This document shows positions 3,249 to 19,582 of a DNA stretch of 32,928 nucleotides, piece by piece. A program made the position numbers and the translations under genes. The notes under the pieces were generated by a model. The model saw only the letters and a program-made list of their open reading frames with translations. It had not been told where the DNA came from and did no database searches. Position 1 is the first letter of the stretch; each line of letters starts with the position of its first letter. The stretch is from Thermoplasmatales archaeon (GTDB taxonomy: Archaea > Thermoplasmatota > E2 > DHVEG-1), in assembly GCA_023128855.1 (NCBI GenBank), contig JAGMDE010000002.1:1-32928 (forward strand), given 5' to 3'.

Positions 3249-4102
3249 ACAAACCCCTTAACAGAAAAAAGGGGAACATCTCTTTTAATTTCCTTTGGTA
3301 TTACAGGAGGTACTATTCGTGGTTTTACGATTTCTTCCTCTGGAATCCTCAGAGAAAGCAAATCATCCATTGTGATTTTCTTTTGTGGAAAATATTTAAC
3401 AATAGAGCTGTGAAAAACAACATTCTGAGGAAGAATTGGACCCCAAAATGGAATGATACCAAATTCATTTACACGAGTCTTAAAAAACCTGTTTAAGAAT
3501 AGTGATAATTTGAGAAGACCGAAACCATAGCCTATTCTAGCAGGTTTACGTCTATAGTTTTCAGGAGGATCAACACCGATAAACCTACAGATATTTTTTA
3601 CAACTTGATCTTGATTTTTTCTAAGTTCATTTATTGAATAAATAAAAACATTTTTTTTGCCGTAAAATTCATGCAATTTCTTGATATACAGTTCATAATC
3701 AAGTTTATCGAGATTCATATATTTATCAAGAAATCCTTGATAATCCAGCACGCCACCAACAGCAACATATTCAACATACCAGGAGATACGGCTGTCTTCT
3801 GCTTTTCTTGAGCCGAAAATGATTCTAGCTTTTGGAAATACTTTTTTTATTCTATCTAAACGTTTGAATCTGTCATCTTTCTTTGTAAACTGGTAAGTGT
3901 AGATATTTTCTTCAGAAATGATGTTTACTTTATCCTTACTTAGAACTTTAGTAAGTTTTTGTTTGATTTTTTCATAGTCAACTTCTTTTTTAAGGTTTAA
4001 TATGTCGTTAAAAGGAGATTTATAAAAGAAGTGCCAGAGATAATTTACATCTAAAAAAGGATATACATTCCACTGTAGAAATGTAGTTCCAGTTTTATGC
4101 AT
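3245..4102 (-). CDS. PAPS-type sulfotransferase (cytoplasmic)
   Basis: 5'-PSB P-loop HKTGTTFLQ lies directly after the first ATG, and a 3'-PB-like RKAEDSRISWY follows. The frame stays open upstream to 4138 and encodes TITNGEIVIHVG, the beta-strand that normally precedes the P-loop. The true start is therefore probably the ATT at 4135-4133, 7 nt after GGGGAG (see finding). The stop overlaps the stop of the convergent gene at 3245-3248. Confidence 0.7.
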   Translation of the reverse strand: MHKTGTTFLQWNVYPFLDVNYLWHFFYKSPFNDILNLKKEVDYEKIKQKLTKVLSKDKVNIISEENIYTYQFTKKDDRFKRLDRIKKVFPKARIIFGSRKAEDSRISWYVEYVAVGGVLDYQGFLDKYMNLDKLDYELYIKKLHEFYGKKNVFIYSINELRKNQDQVVKNICRFIGVDPPENYRRKPARIGYGFGLLKLSLFLNRFFKTRVNEFGIIPFWGPILPQNVVFHSSIVKYFPQKKITMDDLLSLRIPEEEIVKPRIVPPVIPKEIKRDVPLFSVKGFV

Positions 4103-5192: not shown

Positions 5193-6746
5193 ATGAAATT
5201 AGTTAATAATAAACTTAAGTGCGGAATCACTCTAATTGTATTCTTTTTGTTATTAAATTCCTTTGTTTTTCAAGGACTAGGAGATAATGGTTCGATAATA
5301 AAAAATTCAGATTATGAATATAGTTACGAATTTTTAGATTTAAAATATATTTACAATATAACTGAGAATCTAAGCAATATCATTTTTACAGAATATAACG
5401 AATCTGCTGGTGAAATAGCAAAAGGACGAGCATTCGGAACAAAAGGCGAACATAAAGCAGCACAAATTTTATATGATAACTTTACAGCTTTAGGGCTTTA
5501 TACATACTATGAACAAATAAATAATACAGAACAATATCCAGAATTAACCCATGAGTTAGAAATTAGCGACTATTTTGTAAAGATAGATGAAAAAGAAATT
5601 GAGTCGTATATTGCACCAGTATGGTTTGAAACTTCTGAAAACGATTATTCCTTAAACTACACATATAATTATTCAAACCTTAAAGTTATAAAACCAAAAA
5701 TAAATCCTATAATATACCTTTTAAAACAAAAAATTAAAGGGACACTTGAGCCTTTTGTAATTATTTTAAAAGATAGGGCTTTTTATCCACATAATCCTTT
5801 AGGCAATATTTCATTTCTTAACAACTTTAAATTCAAATTTTATGTAATCCGCCAACTGCAATGTGCCATTCCCATTTTATACTCAATGCTTTGGGAAAAT
5901 TATCTAGATTATTTTAAAGGATTAATTTTGTATGATTTTTTTAATGAAGATGTTTATGATATGAACCTTTTGAAGTACGCAAACTGTGTTCCTTTCATTT
6001 ATATTAATAAAAGCTGTGGTAAAGAGATTCTTGAGAATATCGATAATACAAGAATCGATTTTAAATTAAGCCAACAGTTGAATACTTCAGTTATAAGCTA
6101 TAATGTAATTGGGCAAATAAATGGAACTTACGAAAATAAAACAGTTATTGTTGATTGTCTGTATGATTCTTGGTGGTGCCAGGGAACTGCAGATTCCGCA
6201 ATTGGTATGTCAATGGTGGTAGCAATTGCTAAATACTTCAAAGAAAACAATATCACCCCAAAATACACTATAAAATTCATTGGATTTTCAGGAGAAGAAG
6301 CAGGTTTGCGGGGAGCAAAATATTATGCATCTTCTCATCTTGATGAAGATATTGTTTATATGATTGATTTAAACCAATTAGGTTTTAATCAAACTGATCC
6401 GAAACTTGTGTTGAATATAATTGGTAATGATGGGGAGTTTTTAGATGAAATTGAAAATGTATGCAAAGATTCAAATTATGCAAATCGTGTTGATAGCTCT
6501 ATTGGTCTCGACCATATTTTGATAAAAAAAGGTATTCCAATTCCAAGTAATCCAATGCCTTTTGCTGATACCCATCCAGATTGCAAAGTTTTATGCTTTT
6601 TAAAAGACAATGGATGGACGCTTCATCATAGGGATGGTTTAAACCATACAGAAGGAGATGTTTTAAAATATTTTGATCCTGAAGATGTTAATGTTACCGG
6701 TGAAATAATATTAAATGTTGTAAAATATCTAACGACAGATTTTTAA
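5193..6746 (+). CDS. M28-family / PA-domain peptidase-like secreted protein, paralog 3
   Basis: Signal peptide MKLVNNKLKCGITLIVFFLLLNSFVFQG. The 35-aa block TENLSNIIFTEYNESAGEIAKGRAFGTKGEHKAAQ is identical to paralog 2. Motifs GTADSAIGMS, GFSGEEAGLRGA, IDLNQLGF, HHRDGLNHTEGD. The C-terminus is nearly identical to paralog 4. Confidence 0.8.
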   Translation: MKLVNNKLKCGITLIVFFLLLNSFVFQGLGDNGSIIKNSDYEYSYEFLDLKYIYNITENLSNIIFTEYNESAGEIAKGRAFGTKGEHKAAQILYDNFTALGLYTYYEQINNTEQYPELTHELEISDYFVKIDEKEIESYIAPVWFETSENDYSLNYTYNYSNLKVIKPKINPIIYLLKQKIKGTLEPFVIILKDRAFYPHNPLGNISFLNNFKFKFYVIRQLQCAIPILYSMLWENYLDYFKGLILYDFFNEDVYDMNLLKYANCVPFIYINKSCGKEILENIDNTRIDFKLSQQLNTSVISYNVIGQINGTYENKTVIVDCLYDSWWCQGTADSAIGMSMVVAIAKYFKENNITPKYTIKFIGFSGEEAGLRGAKYYASSHLDEDIVYMIDLNQLGFNQTDPKLVLNIIGNDGEFLDEIENVCKDSNYANRVDSSIGLDHILIKKGIPIPSNPMPFADTHPDCKVLCFLKDNGWTLHHRDGLNHTEGDVLKYFDPEDVNVTGEIILNVVKYLTTDF

Positions 6747-6792
6747 TGATTAAATACAAATATTTTCATTATATTTCTCTTTATTTACAAAT

Positions 6793-6817
6793 GCGGATAT
6801 GATCTAGTGGTTATGAT
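6793..6817 (+). pseudogene. tRNA-Gly 5' fragment (positions 1-25: acceptor 5' strand plus complete D-arm), A5 variant
   Basis: gcggatatgatctagtggttatgat matches the first 25 nt of the tRNA at 13793 exactly (25/25). Homology stops at the position 25/26 boundary. Confidence 0.85.
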
Positions 6818-6985
6818 TTAAGTAAGAATTGTTAAAATTTAGATAGTATTATGGATAGGTTTTTTCTAAAAACCTCTTTTTTCCTATTTTTTTATTTGAC
6901 ATTGTCCTCATTGTATAAACTAAGATAAAAGTTTATATTAAAATAAGATATTATGGATTTATTATTCTTAAAGAGGTGCATAAAA

Positions 6986-9040
6986 ATGGGAAGTAGATTG
7001 TTTAATAAAGGTTTAGTTTTTGTCATAATATTTTTGTTTGTTGGAGCTAGTGTTGGTGTTTGTAACTTTAATAAAACAAAATGGACTTTAACCGAAAGTG
7101 AAGGATGGGACGATATTACTGTTAGTACTTGCAACTGTGAAAAAAACAAACCAGCTATTATTGATGGTGAGGATTCGACCTCTAAAGGGCTTACTAGTGA
7201 AGATATAGCCGCTTTGCAGAAACAGGCAGAAATCGAGGGGTGGACATATACTGTTAGTGAAAATCCAGCTACAAAATATTCTATAGATGAGTTATGTGGA
7301 TTAGTTGAGCCTGAGGACTGGTGGGTTGGAGCCGAGTTTGATCCATGTTTGCCCGCTGGCGCATTACCAGATTCTTTTGACTGGCGTGTGGTAGCTGGTG
7401 GTTTACCTCCAGTAAAAAATCAGGGAGGATGTGGAAGTTGCTGGGCTTTTGGAACAATTGCCCCTTTGGAATGTAATATAAAAATTGTTGATGGTGTAAC
7501 AGACGATCTTTCAGAGCAATGGCTTGTCTCTTGCAACGTAGATGGATATGGCTGCAGTGGTGGCTGGTGGTGCCATGAATATTTTATATTAGATGGAAAT
7601 AAGGCAGATCCATGTGGTGATTCCGGAGCTGTTTTAGAGGAATATTTCCCATATGTTGCATATGACGCGCCATGTAATTGTCCGTATCCACATGACTATT
7701 TCATTGATGATTGGGCATATGTTGGTCCGATAAATGGTGTTGCCACAGTTGGACAAATAAAACAGGCAATCTATGAATACGGTCCAGTGTCAGTTGCTGT
7801 ATGTGTGAACTCGGCTTTTCAGGGCTATTCTGGTGGAATATTCAGTGGTCCTAGCTGTGGTAGTATAAATCATGCTGTAGCTCTTGTTGGATGGGATGAC
7901 AACCAAGGAACAAACGGCGTATGGTTTTTACGTAACTCTTGGGGATCTGGTTGGGGAGAAGGTGGATACATGCGTATTGAATATGGTGTTAGCAGTGTTG
8001 GATATAGAACAGTCCGGGTTGATTACGGTGGTTTTCAAAACTACCCGCCAAATGTACCAAGCAATCCTGATCCAGAAGATGGAGAGACTGGTGTAAAAAC
8101 TTGGGCTGATTTGAGCTGGACTGGTGGGGATCCAAACTATGGTGACACAGTTACCTATGATGTGTATTTTGAGAAAGGCGATTCCACACCAGATGTATTG
8201 GTATCAGATGATCAACTAGAAACCACCTATGATCCTGGAACAATGGATTATGACTCACATTATTACTGGCAGATTATTGCAACAGATGATCTTGGAGAAT
8301 CTACAACAGGTCCAATATGGGATTTCACCACTCGTTCACCACCCAATAATGCTCCATATGAGCCTAGTAACCCTAGTCCAGCCGATGGTGCAATAGACTG
8401 TGATATTGATATTGATTTCAGCTGGACAGGTGGAGATCCTGACCCTGATGATACTGTTTTTTACGATGTTTATTTAGATGCAAATAATCCTATTCCAACT
8501 ACTTTAGTTTCTGACGATCAAACAGAGACTACATTTGACCCAGGGACTCTTAATAAGGGTATTACTTATTATTGGAAAGTTCATGCTAAAGATAACCATA
8601 ATAGGGTAACTCGTGGACCTGTTTGGCATTTTACTACCGAAGAAGAACCGCCGAATGAACCACCAAATCCGCCAACTATTACAGGTGAGACAAATGGACA
8701 AACTGGAGTAACTTATGATTATAACTTTATTTCAACTGATCCAGAAGGTAATTTTATATCCTATTTTGTCAACTGGGGAGACGATACAACTAGTGATTGG
8801 ACTGAATTTGTATTCTCAGGAACTACAGTAACGTTATCAAAAACTTGGAGTACAGACGGAATATTTACTATTCAAGCAAAAGCAAAAGACATAAATGGTG
8901 CTGAGAGCGAATTGGGAACACTAACAGTTACAATGCCACGGAACAAAATAATTAACAGACCATTCCTACAGTTCCTAGAGAATCACCCAAATATGTTTCC
9001 GATCCTACAAAAACTTCTTCATAGATTAGGACTAAAATAA
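6986..9040 (+). CDS. secreted papain-like (C1) cysteine peptidase with 2 Fn3-like modules, a PKD-like domain and the FPxLxxLL C-terminal tail
   Basis: Catalytic motifs QGGCGSCWAFG, INHAVALVGWD and NSWGSGWGEGGY. I prefer the ATG at 6986 (AGAGGTG SD 7 nt upstream, then signal peptide MGSRLFNKGLVFVIIFLFVGASV) over the ORF-track start at 6953. PKD-like segment YFVNWGDDTTSDW...AKDINGAES. Tail FLQFLENHPNMFPILQKLLHRLGLK. Confidence 0.85.
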   Translation: MGSRLFNKGLVFVIIFLFVGASVGVCNFNKTKWTLTESEGWDDITVSTCNCEKNKPAIIDGEDSTSKGLTSEDIAALQKQAEIEGWTYTVSENPATKYSIDELCGLVEPEDWWVGAEFDPCLPAGALPDSFDWRVVAGGLPPVKNQGGCGSCWAFGTIAPLECNIKIVDGVTDDLSEQWLVSCNVDGYGCSGGWWCHEYFILDGNKADPCGDSGAVLEEYFPYVAYDAPCNCPYPHDYFIDDWAYVGPINGVATVGQIKQAIYEYGPVSVAVCVNSAFQGYSGGIFSGPSCGSINHAVALVGWDDNQGTNGVWFLRNSWGSGWGEGGYMRIEYGVSSVGYRTVRVDYGGFQNYPPNVPSNPDPEDGETGVKTWADLSWTGGDPNYGDTVTYDVYFEKGDSTPDVLVSDDQLETTYDPGTMDYDSHYYWQIIATDDLGESTTGPIWDFTTRSPPNNAPYEPSNPSPADGAIDCDIDIDFSWTGGDPDPDDTVFYDVYLDANNPIPTTLVSDDQTETTFDPGTLNKGITYYWKVHAKDNHNRVTRGPVWHFTTEEEPPNEPPNPPTITGETNGQTGVTYDYNFISTDPEGNFISYFVNWGDDTTSDWTEFVFSGTTVTLSKTWSTDGIFTIQAKAKDINGAESELGTLTVTMPRNKIINRPFLQFLENHPNMFPILQKLLHRLGLK
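8057..8638 (+). repeat. two tandem ~92-aa Fn3-like modules inside the C1 peptidase gene (period 306 nt)
   Basis: Module 1 (8057-8332): PSNPDPEDG...LSWTGGDPNYGDTVTYDVYF...YYWQIIATDD...GPIWDFTT. Module 2 (8363-8638): PSNPSPADG...FSWTGGDPDPDDTVFYDVYL...YYWKVHAKDN...GPVWHFTT. Confidence 0.7.
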
Positions 9041-9165
9041 AATATTTGTTAACCTAATATCTCTTTCTTCTTTTTTTAAAAAATTTTCTGTGTACAAAAA
9101 ATGAAAAAGATATAAATCATATGCTTTTATCAATAAAAATCTGTTATATTATTAACCTGTAAATT

Positions 9166-9237
9166 GCGGGTATGATCTAGTGGTTATGATAGTGGCTTCC
9201 CAAGCCACTCACCCGGGTTCAAATCCCGGTATCCGCA
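9166..9237 (+). tRNA. tRNA-Gly (anticodon CCC), copy 1, G5 variant
   Basis: Hand-folded cloverleaf. Acceptor GCGGGTA/TATCCGC (G5-U68 wobble). D-arm ATCT-AGTGGTTA-TGAT with G18 G19. Anticodon stem GTGGC/GCCAC with loop TTCCCAA. T-arm CCGGG-TTCAAAT-CCCGG. Discriminator A. 72 nt, no encoded CCA, no intron. Confidence 0.93.
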
Positions 9238-9266
9238 TGTTACTAAAGAAAGGAGAGAGGTTGTTT

Positions 9267-11147
9267 TTATATTAGTTCTAGTAGTCTGGCAAATACTGGA
9301 AATCTATCTAGTAATCCACTAATTAATCTAAATTGAACTGGTCTGTAAACTGGTTTGTTCATTGGATCGATACCATCTTCTGCAGCAAGTGTTGGATCGC
9401 CAAATAATGACCACTCGAGCATTGTTTTCCAATCTGACATTTGAAAACCAGATGAAAATGTGTTGTAATAAGCTGAAATGCTGTTCCCCCATACATCTCC
9501 AAATATCTTTGTGCTAACAAGTTCCTCAAATGATTTGACTTCCATCCATCCAGTGGTTCTAGCTACAATATCTGTTCCGGTAGCTCCATAGCTGATACCT
9601 GATGCTGAATAAACTGCAATGCCTCCTCCGTCTTTCTTGTTAAGATTTTTCCAGCTGAAACAGGTATCTGACTCCGAGTATTTGCTATTTGAACACGACT
9701 TATAAACGCAGACAGGATATTTCATAGGGTTTATCACTAAATATAAGTCAAAATCAAGGTAGAGAAATCCTGTGTAAGGTGAAATCAATGTTTTAGCAGG
9801 AACCCAAGTTTCCTTATCTTTTGGTGGATGTGTCGCAATACTAGCCCAGCTACCATGTCCACAAAAATCAACAAAATCTACTCCGCTTCTGAAACCAGCT
9901 CCAATATTTGGCTTTGTTAAAGTCTCATCTGATGCCCATAAACGAGTTGCAGTATATCCTGGTAGTTTGGTTAATACAACTGTGTTAGCATATTCACCTT
10001 CATTGATACTATCCCCAGTAAAAGAATCTCCCCCCATTTGAAGGATCTTATTGATCATTTTGTTGTGATCTTTATACCAGATTATTTTGTCTATTACAAC
10101 ATTTAATTCATTAACATTGTTACATGGAATTTTTCCAAGATAAACATCTGGATGAACGTCTATATCAGCCATATCTCCAGGAAACTCTGCAAATTTACCG
10201 TCCTCATCAACATCCCAATCTGAAAATCCCATAGTGCTATTATAGATATCTGCAAAGTAAAGATCGCTTGGGAAATAATCTTCATATTCATCAGATTTAA
10301 TCCATGCCTGTCTTACCGGAAATATCTCTTCACCTTCAACACCAGCACCAATAAGAATTACGTATGTAATACCCCATGTTTCAATTGCATCTTTAATATA
10401 GAATTTTATATCTTCTTGCTCGTCAACACCAACACCAGATGGGATTTCATCAAGTGTTACCATAACTGTATTAACTGGTGGAGACAAATCATTTTTATAA
10501 TTAACTAGTCGTTGTAATGCTCCCTCAAACTCAGTTGGTGTTAATATCAACAGGTCATACTCACTAGGAAAAGTAATAGGACTTGCTGGTGGTGTGTAAT
10601 CTACTTTAATTGTAACAAGTTCTGAGTATAAAATTAAGTTTTCCTGTGGTTTATATTGGATCGGTTGAATTGGAATAGTAAGAAAAATAACTCGTTCTCC
10701 ATCCTTAAGTCCAGCTCCAGTTCTGTAACCATATCGTTGTTCTGGATAGATGTCAATACCTAAATATGAAATTTCTTTTTCAGAATTTTTTACATTCATC
10801 GTAATTATAGAATCCGGGTATACTTCGGGTGAGAGTCTAACAGGCTTAGAAATTTTCTTTTCGATAGTATTAGAAAACGTGACCTCAACATTATCAATTA
10901 TTGTTCCTAACGGAAAAGTATAAACTTTTGTAACAACCGGTAATGTTGGTTTACCTGTTTCCCAAGAATTAGTTGTAGCTTCTTCAAGTTCAATTAAAAC
11001 ATAATCCTGTTCTTCATTTATTATTGGTTGTGAAAAAATAATTGTTTCAGATATGAAATCTTCTTTCTCGCTTTCGTTTACGGCAACAGCTCCTAGTCCA
11101 CTAATGACTAAACTTAATAGTATTAATAATGTTATTATTTTCCTCAT
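9267..11147 (-). CDS. secreted C25-like (gingipain/clan CD-like) cysteine peptidase with FPxLxxLL C-terminal tail
   Basis: I prefer the ATG at 11147 (GGAGGC SD 8 nt upstream, signal peptide MRKIITLLILLSLVISGLGAVA). Motifs YVILIGAG, DLYFADIY, a His motif FCGHGSW and a downstream KSCSNS Cys candidate. Tail FRLISGLLDRFPVFARLLELI. The family call rests on motif resemblance only. Confidence 0.55.
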   Translation of the reverse strand: MRKIITLLILLSLVISGLGAVAVNESEKEDFISETIIFSQPIINEEQDYVLIELEEATTNSWETGKPTLPVVTKVYTFPLGTIIDNVEVTFSNTIEKKISKPVRLSPEVYPDSIITMNVKNSEKEISYLGIDIYPEQRYGYRTGAGLKDGERVIFLTIPIQPIQYKPQENLILYSELVTIKVDYTPPASPITFPSEYDLLILTPTEFEGALQRLVNYKNDLSPPVNTVMVTLDEIPSGVGVDEQEDIKFYIKDAIETWGITYVILIGAGVEGEEIFPVRQAWIKSDEYEDYFPSDLYFADIYNSTMGFSDWDVDEDGKFAEFPGDMADIDVHPDVYLGKIPCNNVNELNVVIDKIIWYKDHNKMINKILQMGGDSFTGDSINEGEYANTVVLTKLPGYTATRLWASDETLTKPNIGAGFRSGVDFVDFCGHGSWASIATHPPKDKETWVPAKTLISPYTGFLYLDFDLYLVINPMKYPVCVYKSCSNSKYSESDTCFSWKNLNKKDGGGIAVYSASGISYGATGTDIVARTTGWMEVKSFEELVSTKIFGDVWGNSISAYYNTFSSGFQMSDWKTMLEWSLFGDPTLAAEDGIDPMNKPVYRPVQFRLISGLLDRFPVFARLLELI

Positions 11148-11252
11148 AATTTGATGCCTCCGCATTATACATAAAGAGTGAAGTATATAAATCTTTATTT
11201 TCAAGTATTTCCAGTTTAAAAATAAGTGATTTATCAAATGAGAATATGGTGT

Positions 11253-11293
11253 TTCTTAAGCCACTCAGCCTGGTCAAAATCCCGGTATCCGCA
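11253..11293 (+). pseudogene. degenerate tRNA-Gly 3' fragment (positions ~32-73)
   Basis: ttcttaagccactcagcctggtcaaaatcccggtatccgca matches the 3' 41 nt of the tRNA at 35/41 positions. The anticodon is changed CCC->CTT and the T-loop TTCAAAT is changed to TCAAAAT, so it is non-functional. The trailing tgtt matches the trailer of copy 1. Confidence 0.8.
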
Positions 11294-11330
11294 TGTTTAT
11301 TAACTAATTAATTTATTAAGGGAACGCGAG

Positions 11331-11888
11331 GTGATTTCGTTGAGTCTATATATCTCAGATAAGATAAAAATGATAAATGATAATTTGTTAAAAGGTTTAG
11401 ATGGTAAAGACATTGAATCTCTCGAGGCTGCCAAGCCTCCTCTTGAACAATTGACTAATCATATTAGGGAATCTCTACAAGGCAATCTACGTGAATCTGT
11501 TAAAGAGCTTATTAAGAGATTAAAGAGAGATGATCAAATAACTGGTGAGGATTTAAAAACAATTGAGAAATGGATGGTTGGGGATGCTGAATACTATACC
11601 AAGATTGAAACCAATTTTCAAGATTGGGTTAATGAGTGCAAACGATTAAGCAATCTAATAGGTGGTTATAGTTCAGAGACTTATATTGAAAATGAAAGTT
11701 CGTTGTTCACCCTCAATGCTTTATTAATAGATTTGAAATTTACTTTGGAAGATGTAATTCGTTATGTTAGTTTCTCAAACCGAGTTAAGAATTTCATGAG
11801 ATCTGCTAGCTCGGGCACAATTAGCAGCGAAGATAAAAAAGTATTAGCTGACTTAATTGAGCGGCAATTATATTCTGAAGATTTCTGA
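11331..11888 (+). CDS. hypothetical cytoplasmic helical protein
   Basis: Long ORF with no signal peptide and no motif I recognise. The start is ambiguous: GTG 11331, in-frame TTG 11340 just after GAGGTGA, or ATG 11370. It lies between the two tRNA-fragment-bounded blocks. Confidence 0.55.
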   Translation: MISLSLYISDKIKMINDNLLKGLDGKDIESLEAAKPPLEQLTNHIRESLQGNLRESVKELIKRLKRDDQITGEDLKTIEKWMVGDAEYYTKIETNFQDWVNECKRLSNLIGGYSSETYIENESSLFTLNALLIDLKFTLEDVIRYVSFSNRVKNFMRSASSGTISSEDKKVLADLIERQLYSEDF

Positions 11889-11999
11889 ATATTTACGTGA
11901 AGTCATTCTAAATTCTCTTATGAAAAAGAAAATTGAAAAACAGTATGCTCCAACGTAACAGATTTTAAAAACAAAAATCATATTTATCTCCTTACTTTT

Positions 12000-12023
12000 G
12001 CGGGTATGATCTAGTGGTTATGA
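12000..12023 (+). pseudogene. tRNA-Gly 5' fragment (positions 1-24), G5 variant
   Basis: gcgggtatgatctagtggttatga matches the first 24 nt of the tRNA at 9166 exactly (24/24). Homology is lost from position 25. Confidence 0.85.
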
Positions 12024-12166
12024 ACAAACAAAAAGCTCGCAAAAAAAGTGGTGGGATTTTTGACTAAATTACTAAAAGCCATTTTTATTGTTCTTGGCAA
12101 ATCGAGTTTTTAAAAATATTTATATATAAAGATAACAATATATATTATACTGGTTAGTGAAAATAG

Positions 12167-13744
12167 ATGATTAGGAATAGTTTGTCTAGAAAAGGCTTGG
12201 TTCTGGGAATAATAATCTTGTTTATTGGAATAAGTGTTTTACCGAATATAAGTGGCGGCATCGGAGAAATGAACTGTGTAAACAATGATTTTGGATGTAG
12301 ATCAACCAGCTTTATACCTAATGAAAGTGTATTGGATATCGACTATATTTACAATATAACTAAAGCATTAAGTTATATTATCTTTACCGAATACAACGAA
12401 TCAGCAGGAGAAATTGCAAAAGGAAGAGCTTATGGAACTAAAGGTGAACATCGTGCCGCTAAACTATTACTTGATAATATGACTGACTTAGGGCTTTACA
12501 CCTATAAAGAACAAATAAATAATACAGAAAAATACCCATATTTAACACATGAAATTGAAATTGTTGATTATTATGTTAAAATAGACAATGAGACTGTTGA
12601 TTCTTATATTGCACCGGTATGGATCAAAAACTCTGAAAATAATCATGATTTAAATTATACTTATAATTATAGCAATTTAAAAGTAATTGAACCTCCTCTT
12701 TTTCCAAATTTATATATGATTAAACAAAAAATAAAAGGAGAATTAGAACCTTTTGTAATATTACTAAAAAATAAAGCTTTTTATAATGATGATACTATCG
12801 TAGAGTATTATCCATTTTTAAATAATTTTTATGTAAATTATTATATGATTAGAGTGAGACAGAAAATTGCTACAATAGCATATTCATGGTTATGGAATAA
12901 ACATATGGATTACTGTAAAGGGATATTATTGTATGACATGAATGATAGCTGCTATGATATGAATCTTTTAAAAAATACGAATCGTATGCCATTTATTTTC
13001 ATAAATGGAACTATTGGTAAAAAAATATTAGAGGATTGTGAAAATACTAGAATTGATTTTAAATTAGAGCAAAGATTGAATACTTCTGTTATTAGTTACA
13101 ATGTAATCGGGCAGCTAAATGCTACTGATTCAGATAGTGCAACTATAATTATTGACTGCCTTTACGATTCATGGTGGTGTCAAGGTACTGCAGATGCGGC
13201 CATCGGAATGGCAATGGTAATGGGAATTGCAAAATACTTCTGTGATAATAATATCAAGCCTAAATATAACTTGAAATTTATTGGATTTAGTGGTGAAGAA
13301 CATGGTTTTTGCGCTGGATCAAACTATTATGAAAATATACATAGCGATGAAAATATAAAATATGTTATTGACTTGAATCAACTTGGTTTTTGGCAAAAAA
13401 ACGATGAATTAACACTTAATATTATCTGTAATAAAATAGGTTTCCTAAGTGAAATATGGAAAATAGTAAAACAAGCAAATTATGGAGAAAGAGTAAATAG
13501 CTCAGATAAAGCAATGCCCATTTGGGTGAAGAATGGCGGCCCAAGTAATTCTGGACCTTTTGCTACTAATAGAAGAGATTGTAAAACAGTTTGTTTTTTA
13601 AAAGATGGTGGCTGGAAATTTCATCATAGAGACGGTTTGAACCATACAGAGGGTGATGTTTTAAAATATTTTGATCCAGAAGACGTGAATGTAACTGGCG
13701 AAATAATTCTAAACGTTGTAAAATATTTAGTGACTGATTGGTGA
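12167..13744 (+). CDS. M28-family / PA-domain peptidase-like secreted protein, paralog 4
   Basis: Signal peptide MIRNSLSRKGLVLGIIILFIGISVLPNISG. Conserved N-terminal block IIFTEYNESAGEIAKGRAYGTKGEHRAAK. Motifs GTADAAIGMA, GFSGEEHGFCAG, IDLNQLGF, HHRDGLNHTEGD. Closest to paralog 3. Confidence 0.8.
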   Translation: MIRNSLSRKGLVLGIIILFIGISVLPNISGGIGEMNCVNNDFGCRSTSFIPNESVLDIDYIYNITKALSYIIFTEYNESAGEIAKGRAYGTKGEHRAAKLLLDNMTDLGLYTYKEQINNTEKYPYLTHEIEIVDYYVKIDNETVDSYIAPVWIKNSENNHDLNYTYNYSNLKVIEPPLFPNLYMIKQKIKGELEPFVILLKNKAFYNDDTIVEYYPFLNNFYVNYYMIRVRQKIATIAYSWLWNKHMDYCKGILLYDMNDSCYDMNLLKNTNRMPFIFINGTIGKKILEDCENTRIDFKLEQRLNTSVISYNVIGQLNATDSDSATIIIDCLYDSWWCQGTADAAIGMAMVMGIAKYFCDNNIKPKYNLKFIGFSGEEHGFCAGSNYYENIHSDENIKYVIDLNQLGFWQKNDELTLNIICNKIGFLSEIWKIVKQANYGERVNSSDKAMPIWVKNGGPSNSGPFATNRRDCKTVCFLKDGGWKFHHRDGLNHTEGDVLKYFDPEDVNVTGEIILNVVKYLVTDW

Positions 13745-13792
13745 ATGTTAAATACATTTATTTTAATTCAATTTTTCATAAAACATTAAATT

Positions 13793-13864
13793 GCGGATAT
13801 GATCTAGTGGTTATGATAGTGGCTTCCCAAGCCACTCACCCGGGTTCAAATCCCGGTATCCGCA
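13793..13864 (+). tRNA. tRNA-Gly (anticodon CCC), copy 2, A5 variant
   Basis: Identical to copy 1 except position 5 (A instead of G), which gives a Watson-Crick A5-U68 pair. Same cloverleaf, 72 nt, no CCA. Both copies are preceded by taaatt. Confidence 0.93.
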
Positions 13865-13877
13865 TAGCTTATTTTAA

Positions 13878-15599
13878 TTAACTATATGGATTACGTTTAG
13901 GTCGCCAGTCGAAATTAATGTAAGGAATCTTTCTATGACCAATATGTCCTTTGATTATTTTTGGTAAGAGTCGTGGCCAGTCATCCCAGTAGTTATTTTT
14001 CCACTTAGTTAAAAAAGCATTGTAAATATATGCTTGTTTGGAGTTATTAATAAAATTGTTATTAGTGATCTGGTTTTTGTTTGATTCAGCTATTTTTATT
14101 CCTATGCTGTTGTTTCTAATTGTGTTTTTTCCATTGATGATATTACTGTTTGATGCGCCCCTAAGATAGATCCCGCATTCTCCATTATCACTTATTATAT
14201 TTCCTGTGATTTTTGAAAAATCACAGCATTGCATCTCTAAGCCAACAGCGGTATTCATCTTGACAGTATTTCCTATTATTTCATTGTTATTTATCCAATG
14301 TGCATAAATTCCTTCTCGATTATTCTGGATGATATTATCTTGTACGATACTCCAGGCATCTTCATAGGCATAATTCAAGAAAAGCCCAATATCATTATTT
14401 TGAATTATGTTATCACGAATTGTTGCATTTGATCTTAAAGTAAGGGTCTTTATCCCAGCATTAAAAGACTGATTTCCACTATTTTGGACTGTAAATCCAG
14501 ATATTCTTACCTGTGGCTCGGAGATTGTTATTACATCTCCGACACCGCCTCCATCAATTATTGTGTTAGATCTATCTTCTCCATCTATTTTGACAGATTT
14601 GTTTACAATGAGGTTTTCATTATAAGTTCCATTCATTACATAGATGGTATATCCTGGGTAGACTTCATTAATAGCCTCTTGAATGGTTTTATAAGGATAC
14701 TCCTTGGTACCGTTCCATGGTCCTGCTGTATTGTCATCATCGACATAGGCAATTGGAAATTGACCGTAAACGCCTGTCAAATAGAATGATTTCTTTTCAA
14801 TGCCACATTCACCATATTTAATATTAAACCAACCCTCGTTCTGCAATTCTGGCCCCCAACTATTTTTAATGATCCAATATCCAGGGTCATCATTATAGCC
14901 CATTATACAAACATAATGTGGGCCCCTTGCAGACCCCCGCCTATGTTGATAAATTCCTTTCTTATATAACGCGAAATCTTCATAGACGAGAAAGTAGGTT
15001 GGAACAGGTCCATTTGTAATTAGTGCAGTTTTAATAACTTCTATATCTTCTGGAAGATAATACCAATCTGAGATTTTTACAGTTCTGTTTTGCCAATCTG
15101 GAGATGTTGTGTTTAAGGGATATTGATATTTATCACGCGGATATGGCCAACATGCCTCATCTGGCATACCATGCTCTTTTAGAAATTTAGTATCAGTTTC
15201 AGGATAAGAACCCCAATCAATTACACCTCCACTAAAAAAGAACAAATGAGCCTCAGAGAGGTCACACCCAAAAGGATAACCAACTTCAATCTGAACCATT
15301 GCTTCAAGGGCAGAGGTCAAAGCAAATGATTCACAACTAGGATAGGCATATTGATTTTTTACTGGCGTCGAAAAATCAATATCACCAGGAATACCATATC
15401 CATTTTCGTCTAAATCAGCAGAGCGCCAACTAAAATATGATGGAAGATCGTCCAATGGTTCTAAATTGATGATTTTTCCTTGTTGAGTTGGTTCTTCAAG
15501 TTTTTCTGATGCAATTTTTATTCCGCTTACAACAGGAAAAATAATGCTTCCAAGTAAAAGAGTTGCAAAAAATATAGATATTAAAGTATTTACTTTCAT
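13878..15599 (-). CDS. secreted papain-like (C1) cysteine peptidase fused to a right-handed parallel beta-helix (NosD/PbH1-like) domain
   Basis: I prefer the ATG at 15599 (GGAG SD, signal peptide MKVNTLISIFFATLLLGSIIFPVVSG). C1 motifs NQYAYPSCESFALTS, HYVCIMGYND and KNSWG. C-terminal half has GTYNENLIVNKSVKIDGEDRSNTIIDG followed by repeated N-rich beta-helix rungs. No FPxLxxLL tail. Confidence 0.8.
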   Translation of the reverse strand: MKVNTLISIFFATLLLGSIIFPVVSGIKIASEKLEEPTQQGKIINLEPLDDLPSYFSWRSADLDENGYGIPGDIDFSTPVKNQYAYPSCESFALTSALEAMVQIEVGYPFGCDLSEAHLFFFSGGVIDWGSYPETDTKFLKEHGMPDEACWPYPRDKYQYPLNTTSPDWQNRTVKISDWYYLPEDIEVIKTALITNGPVPTYFLVYEDFALYKKGIYQHRRGSARGPHYVCIMGYNDDPGYWIIKNSWGPELQNEGWFNIKYGECGIEKKSFYLTGVYGQFPIAYVDDDNTAGPWNGTKEYPYKTIQEAINEVYPGYTIYVMNGTYNENLIVNKSVKIDGEDRSNTIIDGGGVGDVITISEPQVRISGFTVQNSGNQSFNAGIKTLTLRSNATIRDNIIQNNDIGLFLNYAYEDAWSIVQDNIIQNNREGIYAHWINNNEIIGNTVKMNTAVGLEMQCCDFSKITGNIISDNGECGIYLRGASNSNIINGKNTIRNNSIGIKIAESNKNQITNNNFINNSKQAYIYNAFLTKWKNNYWDDWPRLLPKIIKGHIGHRKIPYINFDWRPKRNPYS

Positions 15600-15887
15600 T
15601 TTTAATGTCTCCAAGTTATATAATATTTATAATCAAAGTCATATTTAAATTTATAGTTTTTATTTTATTTTATTTTAATAACGTTTATGATATCTGTGGC
15701 TGTGGCCTAGCTATATTGATAGTATCAATTAGTAACGAGTTCTCCGCCGTCTACATGCTTCTCGCCATTTTGTATTGATTTCTTCCATGTATCCAATGGC
15801 AAGGTATTTGTCTAAGTCTCTATTCGTGGTAAGTAAAATTTGAATTGGTGGCTTTTCTCCTGTTGGAAAGTAGCCCTTATACTAATT

Positions 15888-15913
15888 CCCTGTGTTCAAA
15901 TCCCGGTATCCGC
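15888..15913 (+). pseudogene. tRNA-Gly 3' fragment (T-arm plus acceptor 3' strand)
   Basis: The last 21 nt (15893-15913, gttcaaatcccggtatccgca) are identical to the tRNA 3' end. Two mismatches in the 5' T-stem strand lie further upstream. Confidence 0.75.
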
Positions 15914-15940
15914 ACCCATTAAAAATATAAATGTTCTTTT

Positions 15941-16789
15941 TCACTGTGGTGGTTTATAGTTATATTTTTCAATAATAAGCTTCTCTTTTTCAGCAACTAA
16001 ATTAATTGTTTCTTCGTCGTAATAGTAACTTGCTTTACTATGTTTAGAAACATTTGTTTTACCGCCGCCTCGAATCTGATTCTTTGTCTCTTCATCAAGA
16101 TCATATCCAAATTTTTCAAGCATTTGAATGAAGTCATTTTCAAGTGATTCGGTCTTTATTGTAAAATCCAAAATATTGTTGGTTTTATCGAATTTTCTTA
16201 ACTCTTCAAGAGTTTTTATACCCTTGAAGTTTTTTGTTTGAAAAAAATCCTTCATGAAAAAATAACAATATCTATAAGTCATAAGACCCGCAAATTCACT
16301 AATGAAGCTTTCAGAATACCCTTCAAAAAAATCCTTGAATCGTGAAGGATTATACATTAATTTTAACCACTTTCGAAAATTTTCTGGACTTTGATTATCT
16401 TTATATGTATCAATCCAGAGATATGTTGGCTTTTTTATCTCATTTTTTATGTGAGACCACATATCACCTAATTGAAAATTATTTGAATTATATGGGCTAT
16501 ACTTGGATCCTACTTTATATTTAAACAACTCTGAAAATTTTTGATGATCTCGGACAATTACTCTTCCACGTACTTCTCCATCATTAATACATCCAAAGGC
16601 CCATAATGAGACGTACCAATCCCAAGGGTTTCTAATAGATCCGCAAATTGACTTTTTTGTTTCAAAATTTTCAAGCCAATTATGTTTTCCGATTTGCTCT
16701 CCACCTATATGTTTAGATAACAAGGATGCTATATGTGTACAAGCAGTTTTATGCATCTGTAGGTAAATCATTTTATCTGTTACAAACAT
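15941..16789 (-). CDS. sulfotransferase (family-2-like), cytoplasmic
   Basis: KMIYLQMHKTACTHI matches beta-strand plus 5'-PSB loop, and SIRNPWDWYVSLW matches the RNPxxRxxSxY-type 3'-PB motif. No signal peptide. Confidence 0.65.
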   Translation of the reverse strand: MFVTDKMIYLQMHKTACTHIASLLSKHIGGEQIGKHNWLENFETKKSICGSIRNPWDWYVSLWAFGCINDGEVRGRVIVRDHQKFSELFKYKVGSKYSPYNSNNFQLGDMWSHIKNEIKKPTYLWIDTYKDNQSPENFRKWLKLMYNPSRFKDFFEGYSESFISEFAGLMTYRYCYFFMKDFFQTKNFKGIKTLEELRKFDKTNNILDFTIKTESLENDFIQMLEKFGYDLDEETKNQIRGGGKTNVSKHSKASYYYDEETINLVAEKEKLIIEKYNYKPPQ

Positions 16790-16869
16790 AATTTCATACC
16801 TGTTTTAACGATATTCATTATTTAATCCAAGAGGAGAATGAATTTTCTCATTATTTTTAAGCTTATGGT

Positions 16870-16929
16870 AAAAAACCATTAGATATCTATGGGTCTGACT
16901 AATTAGTCAGGATTTCTTGTCTAATTAGC
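16870..16929. repeat. left arm of an imperfect inverted repeat containing a perfect 16-nt palindrome
   Basis: aaaaaaccat (16870-16879), 13 nt, gtCTGACTAATTAGTCAG (palindrome 16895-16910), then a second box ttgtCTAATTAGc (16917-16929). Confidence 0.7.
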
Positions 16930-16985
16930 ATAAGCGCGTTAGTCAAGATTGGCTTTGCTCTTATAATCTTTTTTGCTCTTAAAGT

Positions 16986-18140
16986 CTATTTTACAAGAGA
17001 TAACAATCTCATTAGTAATGGAAAATGTTCTAAAAACCTCAACAAGTAGGAACTATATGATGCTATATCCTTTTGTATAGTTCTAGGTTTTGAGTTTGGC
17101 CATTGCTCTATCAAAGGACACATATCCTTGTTATCCCCACCTGGTATCTCATACGGTGTGTCCCAAATACCCTTAAACGGTTTCTTCTTAGCATCTGGAT
17201 ACCTTTCTTCATAATCACTCCAGTAGTTACCATACTTGCCATCATCCCAGGTATTGTTATATTCATCATTGGCATTCCGTGTGTTGTTTATGAAGTTGTT
17301 ATGATAAATGATGTTGTATTTGCTGAATCCAACGAGTTGTATGCCATTCTTGTTGTTCCAGGTGATGGTATTTCCAGTGATGATGTTGTTGTTGCTGAAA
17401 TATGCGAGCCCTATGCCATAATCATTGTTTGAAATGTTGTTACCCGTGATAGTGTTGTTGCTGGAATCATAGAGATGTATGCCATGCATGTCTTTCGAGG
17501 TAATGTTGTTACCCGTGATGGTATTGTTACTGGAAAAAGCTAATGAAATGCCATTCCAATAGTCGTTCATGATGTTGTTATTTGTGATGGTGTTGTTGCT
17601 GGAAAACCATAAGTAAATGTCCATGATGCAGTTGTTTAAGATGTTATTACCTGTGATGGTATTGCTGCTGGAATTTATGATACCTATACCCCAACTGTTG
17701 TCCAAGATATTGTTGCCAGTAATAGTGTTATAGTTTGAATTTATATAAATACCAGCCTCACCATATCGTATCGTAAACCCGCAGATATTCACATTATCAG
17801 CAGTAATATCGATAATTAACCATTGAATCAACTCAATAACAGTTGTGTCTCTGTTCTCACCAATCAAATTTATCGTTTTATTTATAACCACACGCTCATA
17901 ATATGGCGAGCTATCATCATAGACATATACAGTATCCCCATCATCTGCGTCATCGATTGCATCCTGTATCTTTGTATAGTTATCCTCTCCGCTACCACCT
18001 ACATACAAGGTTTTACCACGACTAAGTGTAGATGGCTGTTCTTCTTTTGATATGCTAACATTATATCCAAATACTATTGGAGATATTGTTGAAACGATAA
18101 ACAGGATTATTATTCCAATTGCAGGGATGTTTTTATTCAG
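16986..18140 (-). CDS. secreted right-handed beta-helix (NosD/PbH1-like) protein with FPxLxxLL tail; probable non-canonical CTG start
   Basis: The ORF-track start at 18008 is a TTG. The frame stays open to 18155 and encodes a typical signal peptide (NKNIPAIGIIILFIVSTISPIVFG) upstream of it. GGGAGGT (18154-18148) sits 7 nt before the CTG at 18140. The body has ITGNNI-type repeated rungs. Tail YLLRFLEHFPLLMRLLSLVK. Confidence 0.65.
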   Translation of the reverse strand: MNKNIPAIGIIILFIVSTISPIVFGYNVSISKEEQPSTLSRGKTLYVGGSGEDNYTKIQDAIDDADDGDTVYVYDDSSPYYERVVINKTINLIGENRDTTVIELIQWLIIDITADNVNICGFTIRYGEAGIYINSNYNTITGNNILDNSWGIGIINSSSNTITGNNILNNCIMDIYLWFSSNNTITNNNIMNDYWNGISLAFSSNNTITGNNITSKDMHGIHLYDSSNNTITGNNISNNDYGIGLAYFSNNNIITGNTITWNNKNGIQLVGFSKYNIIYHNNFINNTRNANDEYNNTWDDGKYGNYWSDYEERYPDAKKKPFKGIWDTPYEIPGGDNKDMCPLIEQWPNSKPRTIQKDIASYSSYLLRFLEHFPLLMRLLSLVK

Positions 18141-18231
18141 AAGTATTACCTCCCTCTATACAAATATCTATACACCAGATGATATATAAATTCTACCCCC
18201 ATAAATCTCAAAAATAGTTAACTTTATATAT

Positions 18232-18300
18232 TTGACCAATTAGCTTTTGACTAATTAGTCAGACTCATCTATTACTTATGATAAGAAGGGATGGTTTTTT
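18232..18300. repeat. right arm of the inverted repeat (mirror of 16870-16929)
   Basis: ttgaCCAATTAGc (18232-18244), tgactaattagtcagac (18248-18264, exact reverse complement of 16893-16909), 26 nt, then atggtttttt (18291-18300, reverse complement of aaaaaaccat). Confidence 0.7.
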
Positions 18301-18342
18301 AAACGGTTTTGTAATTTTAAAATGTAGAGAAGAGGTGTTTTA

Positions 18343-18489
18343 ATGCTCAAAGGAAAGGTTGTTATTAATTTTGAGTACGATGGAGTAAAAGAATGTAGTT
18401 GGAATATACAACAAGAAGGCGAGGATAAGTTAGATAACGAGAATTTAATTTACCTCCTTCAACATGTCGCTGGCGAGTTAATGCCTTAA
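18343..18489 (+). CDS. small hypothetical protein (48 aa), below the ORF-track size cutoff
   Basis: ATG preceded by GAGGTG. Product is MLKGKVVINFEYDGVKECSWNIQQEGEDKLDNENLIYLLQHVAGELMP. No recognisable family. Confidence 0.3.
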   Translation: MLKGKVVINFEYDGVKECSWNIQQEGEDKLDNENLIYLLQHVAGELMP

Positions 18490-18530
18490 AATTGTAATAA
18501 TTTGTCATCTACGTAAGAGGAGATATAAAA

Positions 18531-18719
18531 ATGGTGAAGGTTGGAGATAGAGTAGAATTAATTCAAACAGATGATACAATGACAGATTTAAAACCTGGAG
18601 CAAAGGGAACTGTCTTTAAGATTGATGATGAACAAGAACTTATCTGGGTTAATTGGGATAATGGAGAACAATTAGCTTTACTTGCAGGGATTGACAAATT
18701 TAAGATAGTAAAGAAGTAA
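18531..18719 (+). CDS. small SH3-like protein, DUF4314-like
   Basis: AGAGGAG SD upstream. GDRVELI...PGAKGTVFKIDDEQELIWVNWDNGEQLALLAGIDKF matches my recollection of the DUF4314 pattern (GdrV...G..GtV..iDd.g.i.V.WDnG..l.l). Confidence 0.55.
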   Translation: MVKVGDRVELIQTDDTMTDLKPGAKGTVFKIDDEQELIWVNWDNGEQLALLAGIDKFKIVKK

Positions 18720-18774
18720 CTATAATAGAACATTTTCTCATAAGTTTTATAAAAACATACATAATCTTACTATC

Positions 18775-19566: not shown

Positions 19567-19582
19567 CAGTCCTTCTCTTTTT

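Follow-up and report, generated by a model that had tools for sequence, protein, structure and literature searches.

A tRNA-Gly(CCC) gene as a probable integration hot spot with captured peptidase genes in a Thermoplasmatales archaeon

The DNA analysed here, called the window throughout, is a stretch of 32,928 nucleotides (nt) from a Thermoplasmatales archaeon (GenBank assembly GCA_023128855.1, contig JAGMDE010000002.1). Between positions 6793 and 15914 it contains two intact tRNA-Gly(CCC) genes, four tRNA-Gly fragments and, in the intervals between these pieces, four peptidase genes. This cluster is probably an integration hot spot at tRNA-Gly(CCC), which carries the scars of two kinds of insertion together with a duplication, and whose peptidase genes are captured cargo or local paralogues. 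An earlier note on this DNA had offered repeated integration at both ends of the tRNA gene, followed by decay, as one option. For the 3′ end this proposal is well supported by the comparisons described below; for the 5′ end insertion is apparent from filled and empty sites in relatives, and no integrase can be assigned to it.

Two intact tRNA-Gly(CCC) genes and four fragments

Both tRNA-Gly(CCC) genes that had been reported in the earlier note were recovered by ARAGORN and Rfam. They are separated by 4.6 kb and, as described there, their sole difference is position 5 (G in the gene at 9166, A in the gene at 13793). A blastn-short search of the 33-kb window with the tRNA as query yielded four fragments, all on the same strand as the intact genes. 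This agrees with the earlier description, except that the last fragment ends at 15914 and not at 15913. The pieces, with their proposed relation to attachment (att) sites at the left (attL) or right (attR) end of an inserted element, are:

9166-9237, plus strand: intact tRNA-Gly(CCC), G5 variant (ARAGORN; Rfam 63.4 bits)
13793-13864, plus strand: intact tRNA-Gly(CCC), A5 variant (ARAGORN; Rfam 66 bits)
6793-6817, plus strand: tRNA-Gly 5′ fragment, attL-like scar (positions 1-25, 25 of 25 identical to the A5 gene, E = 1.8e-9)
12000-12023, plus strand: tRNA-Gly 5′ fragment, attL-like scar (positions 1-24, 24 of 24 identical to the G5 gene, E = 6.9e-9)
11251-11293, plus strand: degenerate tRNA-Gly 3′ fragment, putative old attR scar (about positions 30-72)
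15888-15914, plus strand: tRNA-Gly 3′ fragment, putative attR scar (last 21 nt exact, 15894-15914, E = 4e-7)

For the degenerate 3′ fragment, the part found by BLAST comprises 11258-11293 (positions 37-72, 89% identity, E = 1.7e-6), which was extended back to about position 30 by eye. No fifth tRNA-Gly fragment was found in the 33-kb window by blastn-short, where the next match has an E value of at least 0.4; the four fragments are therefore far beyond chance and confined to the cluster.

The tRNA-derived pieces delimit intervals of 2348, 2015, 1769 and 2023 nt. These lengths, the orientations of the genes and the assignment of the genes to four peptidase families are as originally claimed (list of open reading frames, ORFs, and Pfam):

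6953-9040, plus strand: secreted papain-family (C1) peptidase with PKD-like repeats, between a 5′ fragment and an intact tRNA (Peptidase_C1 3e-46, weak PKD_4)
9267-11147, minus strand: secreted C25 (gingipain-like) peptidase, between a tRNA and the degenerate 3′ fragment (Peptidase_C25 5e-40)
12167-13744, plus strand: M28 peptidase M28a, paralogue of the gene at 5193-6746 (Peptidase_M28 5e-15)
13878-15599, minus strand: secreted C1 peptidase fused to a NosD/beta-helix domain (Peptidase_C1 1e-27, NosD 1e-22)

The arrangement is reproduced in two other records; these and all further retrieved loci are referred to by handles (L001 and so on). L001 is 100% identical to the window and shows the same arrangement from 8703 to 23744, and L002, a metagenome-assembled genome (MAG; GCA_030640375.1), is 99.77% identical with the same arrangement from 8718 to 23744. 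Both reproduce five of the six tRNA-derived pieces, and gene content is identical in the two strains at 99.8% identity. The contigs of L001 and L002 begin inside the C1-PKD gene, so that the region left of about 8700 rests on this window only. Near this contig-start point (~8703-8718) the GC content falls from about 0.42 to about 0.34. The spot may be a junction that varies between strains, or else recombination may have taken place here in the shared C-terminal PKD region.

The tRNA-Gly(CCC) locus in related archaea

We searched one genome per species for exact matches to the 24-nt 5′ segment and obtained 66 blocks. Of these, 65 carry labels of Thermoplasmatota-type or unclassified uncultured archaeal MAGs, among them Marine Benthic Group D SG8-52 and SM1-50; the remaining block is labelled as a Spirochaetia bin. 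The relatives of the window look like Thermoprofundales, also known as Marine Benthic Group D. In many of these relatives the usual gene order is tRNA-Gly(CCC), DUF4314 and then, in most cases, an S51 peptidase, FEN-1 and ornithine carbamoyltransferase. The right half of the window is clearly syntenic with the relatives and contains the ancestral neighbour of the tRNA gene:

18531-18719, plus strand: DUF4314 gene, ancestral downstream neighbour of tRNA-Gly(CCC) (synteny)

We determined the position of DUF4314 relative to 47 informative intact tRNA-Gly(CCC) genes of species representatives. It is located 25-74 nt downstream of the tRNA in 22 cases and at a distance of 0.4-3.5 kb in seven, while other content is found in the remaining 18. 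In the window, the gap between tRNA and DUF4314 is 4666 nt. Since the downstream content varies over these 47 relatives, the surroundings of tRNA-Gly(CCC) are a clade-wide variable region, and the window is a heavily occupied example of it. The other att flanks of the window had no informative homologues among the retrieved loci.

The 3′ fragments correspond to att repeats of split-gene integrases

SSV-type integrases of archaea, also called "suicidal" or type I, are known from SSV1 and SSV2 of Sulfolobales and from pT26-2 and pTN3 of Thermococcales (PMC8371274; PMC7253208). These elements have their att site (attP) within the integrase gene, which upon integration is divided into an N-terminal and a C-terminal part, int(N) and int(C) (PMC8371274).

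An intact element with this organization is kept in L036 (Thermoplasmatales SG8-52-3), where the order is tRNA-Gly, Int(N), 3.4 kb of cargo consisting of small genes, Int(C) and a tRNA repeat. Int(N) is encoded by an ORF of 70 amino acids (aa) on the opposite strand, the last 17 residues of which (CEYRDLNPGKWLGKPLS) are the reverse translation of the tRNA. Int(C) comprises 286 aa, starts with LNPGKWLGK and matches the Pfam domain Phage_integrase (PF00589) at 2.5e-14. The att repeat is a 43-nt copy of tRNA positions 30-72, the same extent as that of the window fragment 11251-11293. Int(N) of L036 matches an antitoxin-type (CcdA) family marginally and would represent a ribbon-helix-helix domain. 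Including L036, an Int(N) that adjoins an intact tRNA and draws its C-terminus from the reverse strand of the tRNA was found in four loci (also L041, L020 and L050). The rejoined L036 integrase has 329 homologues (E<1e-5), and those with a named source are attributed to Thermoplasmatota or Thermoplasmatales. Most of the homologues listed have the size of an Int(C), a few are full length, and the N-terminal residues of several spell tRNA 3′ halves in reverse, including the anticodon loop of Gly(CCC) (..CGRRDLNPSYKLGK..).

Immediately to the left of the fragment 15888-15914, the minus strand of the window contains 50 codons with the translation YKGYFPTGEKPPIQILLTTNRDLDKYLAIGYMEEINTKWREACRRRRTRY:

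15732-15881, minus strand: putative Int(C) pseudogene remnant, N-terminal part, of an SSV-type (suicidal) tyrosine integrase (hidden Markov model, HMM, and blastp)

This remnant is the top integrase-family HMM match in the six-frame translation of the window (E = 0.029, 9.9 bits; next match 0.89). Comparison with 121 family members by blastp gave 86 alignment rows, in which most of the members are represented; the best rows are 40-46% identical with E = 1.5e-6. The matches listed fall in the N-terminal region of the family members, directly after the tRNA-encoded residues where these are present, and the reverse strand of the fragment 15888-15914 reads CGYRDLN, positionally continuous with the remnant. 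Although the score is weak alone, position, strand and register together make a convincing case for an Int(C) identity. With this remnant of about 50 codons, the earlier statement that the cluster has no integrase is not strictly true; the catalytic domain of a tyrosine recombinase was not found with the integrase-family HMM in any of the six frames of the window.

Each intact tRNA of the window is accompanied by a partial direct repeat: 13793-13864 pairs with 15888-15914, and 9166-9237 with 11251-11293. The layout of the first pair recurs in L125, which shows the order DUF4314, degenerate 3′ fragment with an Int(C) stub of about 15 codons, second intact 3′ fragment with a full Int(C), and secreted PKD protein. 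The two attR scars that stand in tandem beside DUF4314 at 5780-6200 of L125 are direct evidence of serial integration at this tRNA. The window has the same layout at 13878-15914, and the C1/beta-helix gene holds the place of the secreted PKD gene of L125 relative to Int(C). Judged by this parallel, the C1/beta-helix peptidase (13878-15599) is the surviving cargo of a decayed SSV-type element. The fragment 11251-11293, with its 6-8 substitutions, we read as the mark of an earlier integration event, of which the C25 peptidase would be the surviving cargo. Based on the extent of the repeats and the comparison with L036 and L125, the assignment of the 3′ fragments as attR scars of SSV-type (suicidal) integrase elements is well supported.

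The 5′ fragments share a break point and mark insertions

Every 5′ fragment found, in about 15 species-representative and about 24 metagenome copies, breaks at tRNA position 24/25, and at least five unrelated sequences follow this break point. Since our searches required nothing past position 24 to 26, the shared break point was not imposed by the search.

Empty sites in relatives, which the earlier note had suggested looking for, do exist. In L011, L035 and L051 the gene of a PepD-like dipeptidase, the tRNA and DUF4314 are adjacent. In the filled site of L083, the left side consists of the PepD gene, a similar promoter flank, tRNA positions 1-24 and an arm sequence; after 3.7 kb of unrelated genes, the right side shows another promoter-like flank, the intact tRNA and the apparent start of DUF4314. 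As judged from this comparison of filled and empty sites, the 5′ fragments mark insertions. For the window, the flank of the second 5′ fragment leads to the same site:

11942-11999, plus strand: ancestral promoter flank of tRNA-Gly (orthologous to the flanks of the intact tRNAs in L059 and L037)

Flank and fragment together match the corresponding flank and beginning of the intact tRNA in L059 with 88% identity over 83 nt (E = 2e-25) and in L037 with 85% identity over 78 nt. The orthology indicates that fragment 12000 sits at the former site of the tRNA, and the sequence from 12024 to about 18300 is added DNA. The 5′ fragments of the window pair with the intact genes as 6793-6817 with tRNA 9166 and 12000-12023 with tRNA 13793. 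In L109, a 5′ unit, a single secreted GH39-like/PKD gene (plus strand) and the tRNA are all found inside 2 kb.

The 5′ unit has a length of about 180 bp and contains a tRNA-type promoter flank, tRNA positions 1-24/25, iterons, the sequence ATTTTCCACGGACTC..ATAAAA..CC and a T-run. The arm, which follows many of the 5′ fragments in relatives, is composed of 2-5 copies of a 12-nt iteron, (A/T)TCGACGA(A/G)AA, in direct or inverted orientation. Such units number 1-4 per genome in related Thermoplasmatota. They were seen in L016, L018, L019, L024, L038, L055, L071-L075 and L076-L120, and in the window possibly at 12000-12095:

12024-12095, plus strand: probable degenerate iteron arm and T-run (best nhmmer match of the arm profile in the window)

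The profile match itself (12051-12092) lies directly after fragment 12000 and in register, but its E value of 0.25 (nhmmer) makes it suggestive only; by eye, 12024-12095 resembles the arms of L024 and L093. No iteron arm is found after 6817. T-runs follow both 5′ fragments of the window, and one is also found after the conserved arm in relatives. For this reason, the earlier idea that the fragments supply the peptidase genes with a captured tRNA promoter is unlikely.

The earlier note had also recommended a search for integrases associated with the tRNA segment. For the 3′ type this search led to the split-integrase elements at the same tRNA in L036 and L125, while none could be linked to the 5′ type. 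Two candidates for a link between the 5′ unit and an integrase were rejected. The first was a reverse-strand ORF across the unit (..VENNAEIL..ITTRSYP..), considered as the Int(N) of a suicidal integrase. It occurs only in forms of 47-82 aa, part of it is merely the tRNA promoter flank, and the Int(N) reading is also weakened by the finding of no Int(C) upstream of the intact tRNAs. The second was the iterons as arm sites of the integrase, since none are located near the integrase genes of L036, L124 and L125. With its 24/25 break point, its iteron arms and no integrase, the 5′ side is a new variant.

A second family of tyrosine recombinases (370-410 aa; L121, L122, L123 and L047) was observed among the loci. 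In L121 it stands head-to-tail with tRNA-Asn(GTT). L122 and L123 show a reverse-strand tRNA-like sequence at the spot that matches the tRNA-Asn(GTT) of L121, and the tRNA of L123 appears to be split by about 230 nt. A distantly related recombinase of 391 aa is encoded at 2716-3891 of L020, and its C-terminus reads like the reverse strand of a tRNA.

A duplicated block accounts for part of the pattern

The region 5346-6817 aligns to 12344-13817 with 69% identity over 1504 nt and a constant offset of 6998, and the alignment ends exactly at tRNA position 25. As expected for a segmental duplication, the similarity is collinear through the M28 gene, the spacer and the start of the tRNA. This alignment shows that a block consisting of an M28 peptidase gene and the 5′ part of the tRNA is, by its similarity, present twice. 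The M28 gene of the left copy is:

5193-6746, plus strand: M28 peptidase M28b, a paralogue of M28a; gene and 3′ flank together make up the host-side flank to the left of the first 5′ fragment (Pfam Peptidase_M28 3e-20)

According to the earlier note, each 5′ fragment matches the distal and not the adjacent tRNA in the base at position 5. The match itself holds, and its causes are the duplicated block of M28 and tRNA and the location of fragment 12000 at the ancestral site. Fragment 6793 (A5) matches the distant gene at 13793 because it is the tail of a second block of "M28 gene + tRNA-Gly(A5)", whereas fragment 12000 (G5) is, to judge from its flank, what is left of the resident tRNA in its ancestral place. 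In an att-by-att exchange with a crossover 3′ of position 5, the left scar would keep the resident base and the restored tRNA would take the incoming one. Such a crossover would give the observed position-5 pattern in both sets.

The flanks of fragment 6793 are only 69-78% identical to those of the copy at 13793. Despite a divergence of 22-31% in the flanks, neither 5′ fragment differs from its full-length counterpart; the two may have been cut recently, or selection or gene conversion may keep them unchanged.

Proposed history of the cluster and points against it

Based on these observations, we propose the following steps. On the 3′ side, the attP of an SSV-type element, inside its integrase gene, recombined with tRNA positions ~30-72, and the result was the series intact tRNA, element, Int(C) and 3′ tRNA fragment. 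Both elements would subsequently have decayed until one secreted peptidase gene was left of each. About 50 codons of Int(C) remain beside 15888-15914, and none of the older element. On the 5′ side, DNA was inserted at tRNA position 24/25 with duplication of positions 1-24/25 and of some upstream flank. The old promoter and the 5′ fragment stayed at the left junction, while the intact tRNA came to lie where the insert ends on the right. At present, no part of the window appears capable of independent movement.

A number of observations weigh against this history. On the 3′ side, the Int(C) remnant is statistically weak by itself (E = 0.029 in the window, 9.9 bits), there is no trace of Int(C) beside the fragment ending at 11293, and no trace of Int(N) was found after either intact tRNA of the window. 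The stop codons of the peptidase genes are located 14 and 30 nt past these tRNAs, which leaves no room for int(N). In addition, the 3′ scar at 15914 does not lie next to DUF4314, and the proposed history does not account for the further 2.6 kb between them. Four scans of viral contigs revealed no free attP-bearing element; the two matches were phage tRNA arrays.

On the 5′ side, some units are found among housekeeping genes (TFIIB/Alba; GatDE/glutamine synthetase) far from tRNA-Gly, and inserts between 5′ fragment and tRNA can carry ordinary metabolic operons. No integrase lies near the 5′ junctions of the window or near about 40 units, L047 apart. In L047 a tyrosine recombinase is encoded 228 nt from a 5′ fragment, but it was rejected as the 5′ integrase, since its family adjoins tRNA-Asn(GTT); no tRNA-Gly fragment was found in the contigs of its homologues. 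Finally, a search of 5.8 billion proteins with the ORF of the 5′ unit gave 14 matches of 47-82 aa, none of them full-length, which is weak evidence at this number of matches.

Alternative explanations

It is possible, though we regard it as unlikely, that the 5′ unit is the recombination site of an undescribed archaeal cassette system. In such a system, a trans-acting protein would shuffle short integrase-less cassettes at tRNA-Gly(CCC), with secreted peptidases or glycosidases, or toxin-antitoxin pairs, as contents. The protein could be the N-terminal domain of the integrase, taken as ribbon-helix-helix, or an unknown recombinase. This explanation draws on arrays of the type unit-cassette-unit that contain no integrase: L016 (2947-4055) and L119 (5900-6775) each hold a PemK toxin-antitoxin pair, 81.5% identical at the nucleotide level between the MAGs, and L071 (reverse strand, 7024-8160) holds two small genes between two units. 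At 4477-5139 of L038, a ParE toxin gene is located beside a single unit. The single-gene intervals with secreted hydrolases in the window and in L109 would fit as well, as would the M28/PKD genes that adjoin units in L087 and L094. Further support comes from the units themselves: species share them although the neighbouring sequence differs, and their iterons change in number and orientation, as is seen for protein-binding sites. In addition, the 5′ fragments are perfect copies despite their diverged flanks.

Nevertheless, no recombinase was identified for such a system, and no circular or empty-site forms were seen. The 99.8%-identical strains show no difference in content, and the arms of the window are degenerate (12024-12095) or absent (after 6817). 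There are only 1-4 units per genome, some of them amid core genes, and secreted proteins accompany 15 of 40 units, which does not clearly exceed chance in such peptidase-rich genomes. The emphasis of the earlier note on a novel mechanism is overstated for this window. If the explanation were true, the cassette system would be a way for sediment Thermoprofundales to shuffle their repertoire of extracellular hydrolases.

A comparison with integrons is relevant here. Both have short, often single-gene units between repeated sites, and the relatives also carry toxin-antitoxin cassettes. In contrast to integrons, there is no intI, attI or common promoter in the present case; the genes are found in both orientations with their own promoters, and the repeat is derived from a tRNA and is not an attC hairpin.

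Purely local duplication, deletion and gene conversion in a region rich in paralogues, with the tRNA fragments as by-products of duplication break points, is in our view improbable. This would account for the four M28 paralogues in the window, for the duplicated block that includes the 5′ part of the tRNA, and for the likeness between the upstream flanks of the 5′ fragments and of the intact tRNAs. The break at 24/25, however, recurs in dozens of unrelated loci with different sequences to its right. Moreover, the 3′ fragments coincide exactly in extent with an integrase att site, one of them abuts the Int(C) remnant, and the four interval genes come from different families.

There is very little likelihood that the 5′ fragments are expressed genes for small RNAs, or halves of a split tRNA, with promoter, 24-25 nt, trailer and T-run terminator. 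Fold z-scores of -1.2 to -2.1 are unremarkable and not better than those of shuffled sequences, the 5′ unit has no match in Rfam, and the trailer iterons vary in number and orientation, unlike a conserved RNA fold. What speaks for such RNAs is the conservation of the promoter-like flank and the T-run around units in many species, the apparently syntenic positions of some units, and the ability of the acceptor 5′ strand to pair with a short downstream stretch (type II units and unit 12000 of the window). Split and tri-split tRNA genes occur in Nanoarchaeum and Caldivirga, and one Caldivirga tRNA is split near position 25. The present case resembles these genes in having separate 5′ tRNA pieces with their own promoter; it differs by its intact genes and by the lack of complementary leader and trailer sequences. 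Between the stretch that follows the 5′ fragments and the one that precedes the 3′ fragments, the potential for pairing does not exceed that of shuffled sequences, and two intact tRNA-Gly(CCC) genes are present.

Equally hard to sustain, and given even less credence by us, is the insertion, into the resident tRNA-Gly, of one module (peptidase, tRNA-Gly, peptidase; about 4.4 kb) that split and replaced it. A replacing module of about 4 kb had been another option of the earlier note, and the order 5′ fragment, gene, tRNA, gene, 3′ fragment is indeed seen twice, with a 5′ piece (1-25) and a 3′ piece (~30-72) that are nearly complementary parts of one tRNA. But such a module is not needed, because the fragments occur independently in relatives, 5′ only in L083 and L109 and 3′ only in L036, L043 and L125. 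The att duplication of SSV-type elements already accounts for the 3′ piece, the 3′ fragment of the second set is not located beside the ancestral downstream gene, and the two "modules" have no gene in common.

An assembly artefact, that is, a contig chimeric at repeated tRNA sequences, can practically be set aside for the part that three records cover. The source is a MAG, and the contigs of two further assemblies end within the C1-PKD gene, close to 8700. From 8703 to 23744, however, two other records show the same order at 100% and 99.77% identity, and the repeats are only 24-79 nt long.

Comparison of the hot spot with known systems

An integration hot spot with gene capture, as which we interpret the cluster, is a known kind of archaeal genome feature. 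The SSV-type systems introduced above share with our loci the split integrase at tRNA-Gly(CCC), the tRNA restored at one end and the partial repeat at the other (L036), of which the window keeps the fragment and the Int(C) stub. SSV2 also integrates at tRNA-Gly(CCC). The elements of the window differ in having decayed to one cargo gene each, and their host is a mesophilic lineage of Thermoplasmatota. The 3′ half of the cluster is a new host lineage for a known mechanism, and it extends the split-gene (suicidal) integrases to a lineage that does not seem to appear in the integrase table of PMC8371274.

The closest precedent for the 5′ side would be pTN3, which integrates in the 5′ half of a tRNA-Leu gene, shares 41 bp with it (positions 2-44) and splits its own integrase (PMC5495485; PMC8371274). 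Both kinds of insertion target the 5′ part of a tRNA; a 5′ fragment is left behind at the old promoter, from which the restored tRNA is separated. The units described here differ from pTN3 in their repeat of 24-25 nt plus upstream flank, their lack of flanking integrase halves, and a right arm of iterons followed by a T-run. They reveal that tRNA-5′ junctions also exist in a second form, which has a conserved iteron arm but no integrase and for which the enzyme can now be sought.

The capture of genes in archaea by elements that integrated at tRNA genes and then decayed ("gene capture") was reportedly described by She and co-workers. As in that process, direct repeats derived from a tRNA bound integrase-less segments whose cargo was made resident; here, insertion took place at both ends of the tRNA, and each segment has been reduced to one gene, with secreted peptidases as the cargo. 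The term "gene capture" also occurs in PMC8371274.

Further parallels come from bacteria. The cis-mobilizable elements (CIMEs) of Streptococcus are att-flanked, integrase-less elements that accrete in tandem beside integrative elements and whose cognate integrase is known. The four intervals of the window and the loci L016, L071, L109 and L119 are similar to CIMEs as att-bounded segments without recombination genes, and in both cases arrays are built by successive site-specific insertions at one gene end. In contrast to the array described here, CIMEs are bacterial and have a known cognate integrase.

Thermoprofundales (Marine Benthic Group D) are presented in PMC6461988 as main protein degraders of marine sediments, and their secreted peptidases draw interest. 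At least part of the peptidase set sits in DNA that was delivered to, or rearranged at, one tRNA gene, and the repertoire can therefore be gained and reshuffled by mobile elements.

Genes within and around the cluster

Further genes of the window between the first fragment and DUF4314 are:

11331-11888, plus strand: 185-aa ORF between the putative old 3′ scar and the ancestral tRNA promoter (ORF list)
15941-18008, minus strand: two more inserted genes, between the 3′ scar and the ancestral downstream neighbour, encoding a 282-aa protein and a 340-aa NosD/beta-helix protein (NosD 9e-30)

The 185-aa ORF, which is missing from the earlier note, has no match in Pfam and no homologue in any of the retrieved loci. 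The 282-aa protein (15941-16789) is sulfotransferase-like by eye only. The gene pair at 15941-18008 is missing at this position in 22 relatives. The C25 peptidase of the cluster is annotated with 626 aa in L001 and L002.

The GC content of the C1-PKD gene is 0.40, compared to 0.333 for the window. We rejected this as proof of a foreign origin, since another C1 gene of the window has a GC content of 0.38, and regard it as a hint only.

Four paralogous M28 genes are found within 14 kb (81-1388, 1461-3248, 5193-6746 and 12167-13744), which are 65-78% identical in stretches. They are a local expansion of this gene family, on which the earlier note is silent.

Three proteins of the window (6953-9040, 9267-11147 and 16986-18008) and proteins in L016, L024 and L109 have a C-terminal motif in common, approximately MPRNK..(P)F..LE.FP..FP.L..LL. 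It closes many secreted PKD, peptidase and beta-helix proteins of the clade and may be a sorting or anchoring signal.

A perfect 14-bp palindrome, TGACTAATTAGTCA, is located inside a 33-nt inverted repeat at 16893-16910 and at 18246-18266, in each case upstream of a minus-strand gene (15941-16789 and 16986-18008, respectively), and resembles an operator common to the two genes. Within the NosD/beta-helix gene, 17309-17739 is a periodic repeat of 69 nt, the unit of which corresponds to one turn of the beta-helix; the repeat also matches part of 14066-14147 in the C1/beta-helix gene.

The array is flanked by the genes 3245-4102 and 15941-16789. The former has weak matches to sulfotransferases in Pfam, and the latter resembles its N-terminal HKT(G/A)xT motif by eye only. 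A gene similar to these two is also found near the PepD gene in L071.

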